DNA from: Eledone cirrhosa
Taxonomy: Eukaryota
Length of the DNA stretch: 64,000 bases
Assembly: GCA_964016885.1 (NCBI GenBank)
Contig: OZ024748.1
Span: 24,552,001 to 24,616,000 of the forward strand
Direction: 5' to 3'
Shown one piece after another: positions 21,692-53,734 of the stretch. The number at the start of each line of letters is the position of its first letter. The first letter of the stretch is position 1. A program made the position numbers and the translations under genes. The notes beneath the pieces are model-generated. The model worked only from the letters and a program-made list of their open reading frames with translations. It was not told the origin of the DNA and ran no database searches.

Positions 21692-21706
21692 GGCGCCAAG
21701 CGGTCT
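21692..21706 (+). promoter_or_regulatory. Candidate BMP-responsive Smad composite element GGCGCC-N5-GTCT
   Basis: ggcgcc aagcg gtct: exact match to the Smad1/5 + Smad4 (Mad/Medea) spacing. Confidence 0.55.
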
Positions 21707-22808
21707 CGGCTTGTTCTCTCTATATCTATCAACATCGTTTTACGTCTATTTTCCATGCTTGCATGAACAACCATTTTCGATCAGTGGGCCGCATAGGATG
21801 TGGCTTATAAGGCGGCCCGCACTACTATACAAAATTCAAGGCCATTTTGAAATTAGGCATGCCATTCAGAAAGCCAAACGGCTCAGTTTGCCCATGACTG
21901 GGTTAGACTGATTACATCACTTTGTCTTGTTCATATAATCTCTTTTGGTACGGGTTCTGTGTTTGGGATGCCCTCCCTAACGCTAGTCACTTTACGACCT
22001 GTACCTAGTTAGATTTTTTTGTCTTGTTTCTGTAGCATTAACACTATTTGTTTTGTGTCGGGGGTGAGGGTGATTCCAACGACCCGAGAGGGAGCAGGCA
22101 ATTTAGAACTGTGACCCCTATCTATACAGTAACATTAAATGATGCCAAACCGAAAGAATTTAGATTGAGGCCATCGACCAAGTGCACGAAACCCCGTGGT
22201 GGAGAGCGAGGTACGATGTACTAGCATGTTACTATTACAGTGACATAGTTTCCCTACTATACTTTACACATGAATTAGCCAAAACAGCAGATAAAGCTAC
22301 TGCCAACCTCCAGCTACCCTAAAAACCGCCTGTAGAGTTTCAAATAGCAGCAAAGGCCGGACTGCCACAGTAATGGTACTACGGCATTCAACGTATTTCA
22401 TTGTTAGCGGGTACCCGCTACCCCTATTCGTTAAACAATAGGTTTAGCTATAAATAAAACGCGAGAAAAACTGTTGAAATGGCAAGGAGACCAACCAACC
22501 AGCCTCTCAACCATCACCCTGGAAATAAAGACAGCGATTGGTGCGGCAGCTCCACACGGGCTGGAATGGGACTCATGGATATTCCATCAGAATAAGAAAC
22601 AAGCAAGCATGGGGGATATTGTGACAGAAGATAGAAAGGATGGGATGATGATTGTGTGAGTGATGTAAGATTAGGAAGGCTGATGTACATGGTTAGAGTG
22701 CAACACTGTTAGGAAAAGAGGAACCTATGGTGGAGCATGTTATGGACAATAAAACCAGTTAGGTTGTAGACAACTCCGCATGACGGTGTATGTTGTGTGT
22801 CCATCTAC

Positions 22809-22944
22809 GGCCAATATTAGACGGTGGGACAGTAGGGTGACCCTCCCAGGACGGTCTCGGGCCAATATTGGGTGGTGGGTCGGTAGGGTGACTCTCCCAG
22901 GACGGTCTCGGGCCAATATTGGGTGGTGGGTCGGTAGGGTGACC
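22809..22944. repeat. 51-bp tandem repeat (~2.7 copies) containing TAGGGTGAC
   Basis: tagggtgac at 22833, 22884 and 22935. Confidence 0.9.
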
Positions 22945-23512
22945 CATACATCTTGCAAGAATATGTCAGACGACATAAGCAAGTGTTAAATATCCGTCCT
23001 CAGCACTAAACCAATACAATGAGAATCGATGTTAAGTTGTTCCTTGGTGTTTTCGACAAAGTCAGTTGAAAAGAACAACGTAGAAGAGTAAATCAAAGGA
23101 AAGACGAGGCAATCCTCTTACTTCTTACTGGTATTTAATAAATATGTGAAAGATTCAGGTGAATGGGTTCCAAGGAAGCATTCGTATTTTCTAGCCTACA
23201 ACAATGCAATACTGAAACATCATTAATTGCATTCTAGCACGGCCTGATATTCACTCACTCACATATCTATATTGCCTTCCGGAGTTGAGAAAAGTACCAG
23301 TTTCGTAATGGGATCAATATAAACGACTTTTTCTCTTTCACTAAATTACTGGCCTTGTGCCAACGTTGGAAAGAATTATACTTGGTAAACAAACAAGTGT
23401 GGTGAGGGTGTCTTCGGATGCACGAGTCGATGTCTCGTCAGGCAATGGAGTAATATAGGTATTTCAGCCCAACATCATCAAATCTAACTACTTGCTCCCG
23501 ATTAGGTATGCA

Positions 23513-50300: not shown

Positions 50301-50579
50301 AGAAATGGCCCTTTTATGATGATCTCCTTCGAATGAAACAGTTCTAGTCCCGCAGAAGCCATTTCTATATTAAATTTTCTTGTGTATACTCTATTAATGT
50401 ATTGAGTACCTTACCTGCTGTGGTTACCCCCGTTTGAACCCGGGGTTTGTGTGTGCGTGTGCGTGTGCGTGCGCGTGCATATATTCAGATTAATTTTAGT
50501 TAATATATATTGAGTACTCATTTAAACCCAGTAATTTTTTATTTTAATTAACATCTGACATATATATCCCCCTTTCTTC

Positions 50580-50740
50580 ATATCGCCATTGCCCCCCCCC
50601 CCCCATCGCCATTACCACCACTACTACCCCTTCATATCGCCATTGCCACCACTACCACCCCTCATATCGTCATTACCCCCCCCCCCCTCTCCTACATATC
50701 GCCATTACCCCCCCCCCCCACATATCGCCATTACCACCAC
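50580..50740. repeat. Degenerate repeat of (c)atatcgccattacc + C-run units
   Basis: About 6 copies. Confidence 0.8.
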
Positions 50741-53734
50741 TGTACCAAGTTATTCATGTGTCTATATAAGTAGTACGGCGCAGTCTAAGTCTAGACAGTT
50801 TGCAGGAAGTTATGGTAAGAATCTATCTCACCCCACACCTCTGACGCCATTAACTGCTGCTGATGGATGATCATTACTCCTACTACCACCACTACTGCTG
50901 CTGTGAGGCCACTACGGTTGCTGCTAATCTTATCATTACTACTACTACTACTACTACTACTACTACTACACTACTACTACTACCACCACCACCACTACTA
51001 TTGATGTTCACTTCTATTGCTGCTGTTGCCCTTTCTTTCGCTTTCATCCCCACCTTCTCCAAACTCCATCCCTCTTTCCCCTCTGCTTTCTCCCCTCCCC
51101 CACACACACTCTCTCTCATTGACGTTAGCTTCTCTTAGTACATACTCTTAACACACACACAAACACAATCAAATCACCACATCATACATACAAACTACTA
51201 CAATCACAATACATACACACACAAAGACAATGCATACAAACATTACAGAGAACAGTTATATAAATACAAAAGTTTACACAATACATGCGCATAAAACACA
51301 CACACACACACACACACACACACACACACACACACACACACACACACACACACACACACACAATTCATTTCCAGTTGCAGCCAGGTGTGTAGAAACACAC
51401 AGGGTCGGAAAGGCTCATTAGTTATGACAGAGACAAACAACTTAAGGTAGTGTTGGCCCCCGCCTCCCCGTGATATAATGTACTCACTAGAGGGCAGGGT
51501 CGTATGTCCTCCACAGCCCACCTGGTTGACAGGCTCTGCTTACTAACAGGGAGAAACGGACGTTAAACGATGATGATGATATATAATCCCTGTATTCCCT
51601 ATAACCTGATGCTCCTTCTAAACCCTAAGTAATATTTCTATGGCCCTATAAAGCTGATGCTGTCTGAAAGACTATGGACACTCTCCCTTCTCTTACACAT
51701 GATATGGTATGGCCCCGTAACTCGTGATAGAGTCGTAGGGGCGCCGTATTGACATACAGCGTTTCTTGGACATTTTAAACTTGGCGGAGACCATCCCTCC
51801 CCAGGCCTGAGTACAGCAGGTTTCTTCCAGTGAAAGATAGCAAGTAAGAGAGAGGAAAAAAGGTTATAGAGGAAGAATCAACCTCAGTACTAGACTGGTA
51901 TTTTTTTTTATCGACTTCGAAAGGATGAAAGGGAAAGTTGACTTCGGCGGGATTTGAACTCAAAGAGCTGGAAACGAATACCATAAAGCATTCTATCCGT
52001 GCCAATTCACCGCCTATCTCTTACACACACAAGTGATTAAATAAATAATTCTTACTATCTATACCTGGGAAGTATTATAGTGTATATACCACTGCCAATA
52101 ACAGGGTCTCACTCACTCCCTAGCTATATACTGTGCAGCATGGTTGAAAGTTAAGGAGTTTGTTTCACAATCATTAGATAATAGGTTCAATCCCACTACG
52201 TGACATCTTATACAGGTGTAATTTACATAGTCACGGGTCACCAAGTAAACTGCTCAGTTGACTAAACAACAAAAAAGGTCCATTGTTAAAACTGACAGAA
52301 GAATCAATTATCCTGATACTATAGAATGGTTTGAAAATAATAGTTGAACAAAATGGTGGTTGACATCACTGTTGGATTTATTGATGTGTGTTTCTGTTAA
52401 CGCACAGTCTTACCATGAATATAACTTGTAGATCAGTGTTTCTCTAAAGTGGATTCTGTAAAGGATTTGGGAGTTTTGTGAGACAAGGTGTTTTATTCTT
52501 CTCTCCCCAAGCGAGACCAACCAAGCTTATGGATGTTATCAAACCATCTTGCTTGGGGTTTACTTGTGTCTCTTGCCGGTTCCTGCCACAAAATTTTCTG
52601 AATTAACCATTTAACATTTACATTACTCTATATATGTATTTTCGCAGTAAAGGCTTTATGAGATTTTGATATTATTTATTTTGAGAACAATACCTTAACA
52701 TCAGTATGAGTAGCCAGTTACAGCCTGTTTGAACAGAAAGAGGTGAGAGAATTCTGGTCGGTTGGTGTTTACAATATGATTTAATAAAGTTTTTAGATAA
52801 AATTATGATGGAAGCTTTTAATTAAAATATGATTCTTGCCATCCCAGGCTTGGTATAGAAATTGTCAAATCATCTCAAATATTTCGTTTGTCTATTGAAA
52901 TACAGAACAACTTGGAATGGTTTCGTTTTGCTTTTTCACAGTAATATAGAATTGCTGTCTAGTTCCTACCATGAAGAGCCTTCAAGGCAATCTGGCTGAA
53001 TACTGGATGTTGATGGCAGTATAGTAGAGAAAGTAGAAAATACTGTAAATGACAGAGAATCAGTAGTTTCTTCCGTTGGTTGGGCACGTTGTCAGAGGAA
53101 GATCTCTAAATGTGACATGTGAGATGTCAATCAGGTTTTACTAGTAAGATACTCTGATGCAGTGTTGCTTAGAGGGTTGACGGCTGATAAGTTGCATCGG
53201 CAAGTCAGAATTCACTCTACACTCATTCCCCCCCCCCCCCCCACACACACACACACAGATGCAGACACTGATTATATCACATAGTATCAGGCCTGCTGCC
53301 AACCATTGTCATTGTACATTAAGATGAAGGTGAAATATTGAGAAAGAGAAAGAGAGAGAGACTATTAGTTCTGGTCATTTGGTGCAGAATTGTATGAGTG
53401 AGTGACCTCTAGGCTGTGCTGTGTTGTGTTATAAATGTTGGTTGATAAGGATGATGAAAAGAAAATTAATGGTTGATAGGGGGTGGTGTGGGGAATAGTT
53501 GTGTGCCCATAGGCCCATTTTCAGACCCTGTGGGACGTAGTTAATATTCATTCCTCATGAACAATGAGAATGGTGTAAAGATGGCATAATTACCTTAAAC
53601 TTGGCATGGCTTCTTCCAGTGCTAAATAATGGTGACCCTCTTTAACTACACCAGCAGATGATGACGGATGATCCAGTTGGTATTACAGAGAGAGGGAGAG
53701 AATCTGGATTGCCTTCTCTCCACTATATATATAT

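Follow-up and report, generated by a model that had tools for sequence, protein, structure and literature searches.

The Ski locus and its first coding intron

We analysed a 64-kb window of the Eledone cirrhosa genome (64,000 nucleotides of contig OZ024748.1; positions below are those of the window, counted from its first letter), which carries two coding exons of a gene that we assign to octopod Ski, and describe Smad-type composite sites in the intron between them that may serve as a bone morphogenetic protein (BMP) response element. Ski is the sole host gene recognised in the window, and its identity agrees with the preliminary description of this DNA. The top named matches of the encoded protein are Ski, its Dachshund-homology domain (DHD) part is 94% identical to Octopus vulgaris Ski and 86% to Argonauta Ski, and the DHD is followed by a Smad4-binding SAND-like domain, as in Ski/Sno corepressors. 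The gene parts are as follows.

16030..17277, plus strand: Ski first coding exon (N-terminus and DHD; PF02437, E 2.7e-42), ending AAG/GT in phase 0
17278..56301, plus strand: first coding intron, 39,024 nt, phase 0, rich in microsatellites and short interspersed elements (SINEs)
56302..56595, plus strand: Ski second coding exon (Smad4-binding SAND-like domain; PF08782, E 4.6e-35), ending at the conserved KRKQ junction

The intron is called first within the coding sequence, a numbering that ignores possible exons of the 5' untranslated region. Its GC content is 32.5%, and low-complexity masking leaves about 25.4 kb at 38% GC. Since an assembly gap of 200 N lies inside it (18129-18328), its length and motif count are minimums. 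The name Ski intron 1 in the preliminary description is right for this coding sequence, but not in the ancestral sense, as the intron splits an exon that is whole elsewhere. Specifically, 41 Ski-family loci, forming 31 clusters, were recovered by a metagenome scan (the loci are short and some are transcripts), and among these the genomic-type loci of bivalve-like (L005, L010), gastropod-like (L009, L020), echinoderm-like (L001) and insect-like (L004, L011, L015) character hold the DHD and the SAND-like domain in one frame. This frame stops soon after the SAND-like domain, the pattern expected of read-through into the next intron. Of 100 two-domain proteins, 40 have a short read-through after a KRKQ-like junction; the counterpart of the ancestral first coding intron is the octopod intron starting at 56596. 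There are two exceptions, L040, which is broken inside the DHD, and L038, where an apparent intron lies some six codons upstream of the position seen in cephalopods. The latter (L038, 10234-10612) is possibly an independent intron gain at nearly the same place. In the cephalopod cluster, two proteins read through exactly at SFK/V, namely P0001 (89% of aligned residues identical) and P0138 (64%). Both junctions of the octopod intron read AG/GT, and the acceptor follows (AAT)n instead of a pyrimidine tract; insertion into a proto-splice site would leave AG/GT at both junctions. From these comparisons we infer that the intron was gained in cephalopods, before the split of octopods from the P0138 lineage.

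Composite Smad sites in the intron

The BMP silencer element (BMP-SE) is defined as GRCGNCN5GTCTG, of which positions 12, 14 and 15 are needed for Schnurri repression while 13 and 16 are looser (PMC9508838), and the relaxed definitions GNCGNC(N)5GTCT and GNCGNC(N)5GNCT are also in use (PMC11907993). The intron contains four sites, two of which could be compared with one other species (organism A, see below).

21692..21706, plus strand: composite site GGCGCC-N5-GTCT, the sole perfect GGCGCC among the four, standing alone and bordering a (GA)n run
38224..38238, plus strand: relaxed composite site GCCGTC-N5-GTCT, fitting GNCGNC(N)5GTCT of PMC11907993, invariant in organism A
38275..38289, plus strand: composite site GACGCC-N5-GTCT, invariant in organism A, with ACCACA directly after it (to 38295)
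42998..43012, plus strand: composite site GGCGGC-N5-GTCT, within cluster 2

GRCGNC-N5-GTCT has exactly three matches in the whole window (21692, 38275 and 42998), all in the intron and all on the plus strand, as first described, and GNCGNC-N5-GTCT adds 38224 in the intron. The uniform strand carries no weight (P=1/4). Whole-window shuffling gave a mean of 0.09 strict matches and no case of three or more in 100 shuffles. Because such shuffling could understate chance in a patchy intron, we used local dinucleotide shuffles with tiles of 1000, 300, 100 and 50 nt, which gave means of 0.047, 0.056, 0.058 and 0.115, close (0.05-0.12) to the earlier rough estimate of fewer than 0.1 chance hits in 39 kb. 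Three or more sites were reached in 0/401, 0/501, 0/501 and 0/401 of these shuffles, i.e. 0/1,804 overall, which bears out the proposed enrichment over shuffled background. A null conditioned on the 36 real GRCGNC hexamers and the local GTCT density gave a mean of 0.135 and P(>=3)=3.7e-4; the five local nulls together place the enrichment P at 1e-5 to 4e-4. The half-sites are hardly enriched in the intron (GTCT, 183 vs 184-197 expected; GRCGNC, 36 vs about 24.5, P about 0.02), and therefore the signal lies in the pairing of the GC and GTCT halves.

The excess appears only at the 5-bp spacer and in the active orientation. A scan of GRCGNC-GTCT spacers from 0 to 20 in the intron found three pairs at N5, one at N0 and none at the other 19 spacers. 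In the opposite orientation, GRCGNC-N5-AGAC occurs 0 times (vs 3 for GTCT) and GCCGNC-N5-AGAC 0 times (vs 1). The 25 kb of the window outside the intron hold 55 GRCGNC, none with GTCT at N5. Letter-permuted motifs reach three matches in 4 of 1,800 cases, the real motif among them, so that 3/1,799 controls equal it. With the loosest pattern, GNCGNC-N5-GNCT, there are six matches at N5 in the intron and five outside, and the intron contrast thus fades with loosening. In human reporters both the 5-bp spacer and the orientation are required (PMC11907993), and all four relaxed sites have them; heterocomposite motifs account for <1% of SMAD1 binding (PMC11907993).

These numbers bear on whether the sites are a look-elsewhere match of a genome scan, with the conserved stretch described below being a slow-evolving patch between two close species. 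Octopus genomes are a few Gb in size, and a P of about 3e-4 per 39 kb then implies some tens of such windows per genome. Among non-repeat hexamers, 6 of 5,376 spacer/4-mer combinations reach three, although four of the other five are CT-microsatellite words, and 21692 as well as the element at 50777 (see below) may well be chance. Against this, the motif was already published, the gene belongs to the few pathway regulators that have a precedent, and the conservation is an independent comparison at a pre-chosen place. We consider chance quite unlikely as the whole explanation.

Repeats were another possible source of the sites. A repeat-finding program detected nothing but microsatellites; self-BLAST of the window revealed a SINE-like family and several smaller families, but no within-window repeat overlaps 21692, 38224, 38275, 42998 or 50777. 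The SINE-like family carries GACGCC, never with GTCT at N5, and a repeat origin of the composite sites, which would have undermined the first description, is rejected within the window.

The conserved block and its neighbouring motifs

Among 911 scored non-coding 200-nt windows, the two densest in GC-Smad elements lie at 42.8-43.1 kb and 38.1-38.4 kb, each with a composite site. We call the latter region cluster 1 and the former cluster 2.

38220..38453, no strand assigned: single-copy conserved non-coding block of cluster 1, candidate enhancer, 1 substitution and 0 indels in 234 nt vs organism A
38244..38257, minus strand: GACGAC-N5-GAC, a further 5-bp-spaced GC/GNC pair absent from the preliminary description, invariant in organism A
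38261..38273, plus strand: consensus words TGATAA (38261) and ATGGC (38269), directly before the 38275 site
42865..43015, no strand assigned: cluster 2, the densest GC-Smad-element window of the 64 kb, with composite site 42998-43012, three TGATAA and five ATGGC/GCCAT

A search of sequencing runs with 37905-43240 found organism B in three runs of one sample (word share 0.56-0.72) and organism A in one run (0.13, a value that spans the query as a whole and is uninformative on cluster 2). Contigs of three of these runs were aligned to 37935-38650. An organism B contig is identical over the whole stretch, may stem from the source of the window itself and is not counted as independent support, so conservation was counted from one organism A contig (depth 18.5). 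This contig spans 38033-38648 and differs by 39 substitutions, 34 of which are listed, as well as 51 gap letters; the sole substitution within 38220-38453 falls at 38321, and since no other contig covers the block, any difference there would appear in the list. Depth stays flat from 38127 to 38438, which excludes deletions in that part, and all 18 inserted letters lie outside the block, by reading of the distance-to-end column. Only one contig lies on the block per run, so that the block, including the 38.2-kb pair of sites, is single-copy at 80% likeness in the whole contig sets.

The substitution rates are 6/167 in the left flank, 1/234 in the block and 27/186 in the right flank. The block differs from both flanks together (1/234 vs 33/353, Fisher P=6e-7) and from the right flank alone (1.6e-9), and a scan permutation that allows for chosen boundaries reached this contrast in 4/200,000 cases on the whole alignment. 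Within the 66-nt motif span, 0/66 positions changed. The word share sets the mean divergence at 3.6-6.4% or more (assumed coverage 0.4-1.0), at which P(<=1 in 234) is 2e-3 to 3.5e-6, before correction for the choice of boundaries, and P(0 changes in the motif span) is 0.09 to 0.013. The comparison was made after the motifs had fixed the place. These data suggest that the block is probably under constraint, and we regard it as very probably a functional non-coding element. The sites 38224 and 38275 are unchanged inside it, their constraint not being separable from that of the rest of the block.

The borders of the block raise an alternative at the transcript level, namely a 204-nt cassette exon (38236-38439) that would act as a poison exon through a stop at its codon 21, or else an internal promoter and first exon giving a DHD-less Ski. 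The block starts 16 nt before an AG (38234-38235) that is preceded, from 38207, by a pyrimidine tract and a branch-like CTTAAT, and ends 14 nt after a GC-type donor-like CAG/GCGAG (38440; signals reach 38445). Its GC content of 53% and CpG observed/expected ratio of about 1 would also suit such a role, as would the fact that 3 of 11 members of one Ski cluster begin within the SAND exon, although broken contigs would account for this just as well. On the other side, among 29 cephalopod-cluster proteins there are 19 in which VYHECF follows SFK directly, two that read into the intron and eight that lack the junction. None of the 29 shares a 7-mer with the block translation, a weak point since decay-targeted isoforms are rare in protein sets. 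No Rfam match was found in the window, block included, and no stable fold (z -1.39 and -0.78). A transcript-level role is decidedly unlikely, and a coding cassette exon is rejected, as no isoform among these 29 proteins supports it. Additionally, eleven short open reading frames in 21.6-24 kb and both clusters gave no Pfam match at the curated cut-off.

Cluster 1 reads in order composite site 38224, reverse pair 38244, TGATAA 38261, ATGGC 38269, composite site 38275 and ACCACA 38290, followed by more GTCT, GCCAT and ACCACA words. We take TGATAA to be GATA-like, ATGGC to be a YY1/Pho-like core and ACCACA to be Runx-like, all as consensus labels. ATGGC/GCCAT occurs five times in cluster 2 (0.25 expected) and three times in cluster 1 (0.39 expected), TGATAA three times in cluster 2 (0.10 expected) and ACCACA three times in cluster 1 (0.24 expected); the words were chosen with the sequence in view, which makes their P values optimistic. 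Cluster 2 holds six GRCGNC, of which two GGCGGC hexamers belong to ATGGCGGC. The longest word common to the two clusters is 9 nt, about chance by a rough count. These features would also fit enhancers or Polycomb-element-like regions read by YY1/Pho-, GATA- and Runx-like factors, in which the Smad composites are by-products of GC/CpG-rich motifs. Such a reading leaves unexplained why the sites keep to the N5 spacer and one orientation, a bias that persists under 50-nt local shuffles, and co-occurrence of GATA and YY1 is also seen at Smad enhancers (PMC7987942); we judge it unlikely. The 42865-43015 region also carries a 21-codon ATG frame at 42929, and may be either an internal promoter or an element of the YY1/Pho type.

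Two further elements lie in the intron.

50777..50796, plus strand: GGCGC (50777), GTCT and palindromic GTCTAGAC (50789-50796), outside the 5-bp grammar
51732..51753, no strand assigned: symmetric GTC-N5-GGCGCC-N5-GAC in a two-copy repeat relic, absent from the preliminary description

The first is present as originally described, together with the GCCGTC site at 38224, but GTCTAGAC occurs once where 0.30 copies are expected by chance in the unmasked intron, so its inclusion in the module is not upheld. Clustered CAGAC/GTCTAGAC beyond chance, i.e. an array of Smad-binding elements (SBEs) of the TGF-beta/activin type seen at SKIL, was not found in the intron. The second was set aside as repeat-borne (relic 51732-51780; a copy at 2490-2538 lacks GGCGCC), and could be a co-opted Smad site.

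Several other features were observed. The SINE-like dispersed repeat is about 200 nt long and present in many copies, most of them 75-95% alike, with as many as 19 overlapping matches (7020-7207, 18675-18895, 38656-38834, 44153-44326, 46118-46303, 58038-58217 and others), and ARAGORN found no tRNA in the window. Inverted arms (23718-23755 and 23868-23906), with ends that resemble mariner-type terminal repeats, lie within 23513-23960, presumably a DNA transposon relic, and a 52-nt tandem duplication lies at about 22810-22945. The next Ski intron carries a retrotransposon frame of 561 amino acids (60902-62587, minus strand) with a non-LTR (lacking long terminal repeats) reverse transcriptase (PF00078) and an inserted PHD finger (PF00628), and a second piece of this element, 95% alike, lies at 53897-54164.

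Possible BMP input to Ski and comparison with known Smad systems

The composite motif class is of the BMP type, not TGF-beta/activin: heterocomposite motifs are unresponsive to TGFb1 in human reporters (PMC11907993). The first proposal of a BMP/TGF-beta module therefore keeps its BMP half, for which Nematostella gives a precedent, and loses its TGF-beta half, for which the palindrome was also at chance level. Smad/BMP input through at least one of the sites seems somewhat more probable than its absence, and, given such input, activation is fairly likely. Our tentative reading, the likeliest of those considered, is that the octopod Ski intron contains a BMP-response enhancer that would switch Ski on and so damp Smad signalling. 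BMP-activated pSmad1/5 and Smad4 would bind back-to-back across the 5-bp spacer at cluster 1 and perhaps cluster 2, the GATA-, YY1- and Runx-like neighbours would set the tissue, and the target would be Ski, which once induced would repress Smad targets and close a negative-feedback loop. The observed parts of this scheme are the motif excess, its spacer and orientation specificity, the single-copy conserved 38220-38453 and a Ski protein with DHD and Smad4-binding domains. BMP-to-Ski induction has a precedent, since Nematostella c-ski is pSMAD1/5-bound, with a peak overlapping an enhancer, and falls to 0.48 in BMP2/4 morphants (log2FC -1.06, padj 4.9e-5; PMC10849676). Under a BMP inhibitor, c-ski is differentially expressed (PMC13193452).

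The same Smad binding may have the opposite sign. The sites would then be Schnurri-recruiting silencers, with BMP repressing Ski and so sharpening or prolonging its own signal, or the sign would depend on tissue. All four sites have G12, C14, T15 and the 5-bp spacer, which are needed for Schnurri repression in Drosophila (PMC9508838, PMC4161316, PMC11907993). On the other hand, the same motif activates in fly motor neurons without Schnurri (PMC9508838), Schnurri sets the direction by context, as for brinker vs Xvent2, and its worm homologue does both (PMC11785376), and Nematostella c-ski is BMP-activated (PMC10849676). The negative-feedback sign first proposed is thus favoured by the anemone gene but not fixed by a motif with T15, and we regard the silencer alternative as unlikely, though a little less so than the by-product reading of the clusters.

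Several points weigh against the BMP-activated enhancer. Regarding the motif, it is of the fly silencer type (T15; PMC9508838), and the strict 16-mer ending GTCTG has no match in the window. A perfect GGCGCC half occurs in one of four sites (21692) and both conserved sites deviate; every GGCGCC substitution cuts or abolishes the response in human reporters (PMC11907993). Regarding conservation, the evidence comes from one contig of one other species and two of the four composite sites (38224, 38275). The block compared with the left flank alone gives Fisher P=0.02, and the scan permutation on left flank and block alone gives 26,463/200,000, not significant, which also speaks for chance, while the right flank attracts paralogous contigs and stems in part from repeats. 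Since roughly 165 nt of the block fall outside the Smad sites, Smad motifs alone do not explain its conservation. Regarding other animals, the Nematostella c-ski peak has no annotated BMP response element (BRE; that column is empty in PMC10849676), and snoo is transcribed before Dpp signalling starts in the fly trachea (PMC4778947). The 31 independent Ski-family loci of other animals (185 kb) contain three N5 composites vs a mean of 2.9, and blastn of the blocks against all 41 loci gave no match; conservation, which the preliminary description named as a check, was seen for 38224 and 38275 in one other species. Since these 31 loci show no N5 excess, they give no sign of a pan-bilaterian element. 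The main text of the study of 25 pan-bilaterian elements does not mention Ski (PMC10735318, 0 occurrences), nor does that of the brachiopod BMP paper (PMC13121700).

The intron elements are probably newer than the BMP-to-Ski link, because the host intron appears cephalopod-specific. That an ancient BMP-to-Ski feedback, one shared with the sea anemone, was re-encoded in cephalopods as new composite enhancers within a gained, exon-splitting intron is possible, although we think it rather unlikely. If true, a conserved regulatory link would have been rebuilt on new DNA by enhancer turnover into new intron space. If validated, the 234-nt element would add a concrete, direct target of BMP from a spiralian and might serve as a native BMP reporter in cephalopods; it would also decide between activation and repression by the 5-bp Smad/Schnurri element in the third great lineage of bilaterians. 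The feedback mechanism itself is textbook; the animal group is new. Our search, with most subscription journals outside it, found no publication joining octopus, cephalopod, ski, smad and BMP signaling, and among the listed publications on cephalopod BMP/Smad enhancers none is about Ski by title or abstract start.

Compared with the Drosophila BMP-SE, three octopus sites fit the 15-mer and four fit GNCGNC(N)5GTCT, with spacer, orientation and T15 alike; the octopus sites differ in lacking the final G and in their host, Ski rather than brinker-type targets. The Drosophila BMP activating element (BMP-AE), GGCGCCA(N)4GNCV, is not matched, since 21692 has GGCGCCA but T15, while 51740 has GNCV but G at position 7 and sits in the repeat relic. 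The vertebrate ID-type BRE, GGCGCC-N5-GTCTG (Id1/2/3; Xvent2), is likewise a back-to-back composite with a 5-bp spacer and stands in a conserved module alongside co-factor sites (10.1101/787804; PMC11907993), and 21692 fits 15 of its 16 letters; in contrast, the conserved octopus sites are GACGCC and GCCGTC, predicted to be weaker in human reporters, and the co-factor motifs are others. As in the enhancers with GATA, SMAD and YY1 at Nkx2.5 (review table, PMC7987942), the motif trio stands side by side in both octopus clusters, where the putative GATA and YY1 sites are consensus words.

The vertebrate SKIL/SnoN promoter provides the same logic, in that a Smad-induced Smad corepressor closes a negative loop (PMC5992185), in agreement with the Smad-inducible SnoN cited in the preliminary description. 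BMP7 is among the listed regulators of Skil, and Ski regulation is called poorly studied there. Unlike the octopus intronic GC-N5-GTCT composites, the SKIL promoter SBEs are read by Smad2/Smad4 under TGF-beta. With Nematostella c-ski the octopus elements are unlikely to be homologous DNA, because their host intron is missing from other animals' Ski, and the anemone peak differs in lacking an annotated BRE. The two systems share the gene family and the proposed BMP-to-Ski link, the anemone gene being BMP-bound and BMP-activated (PMC10849676).

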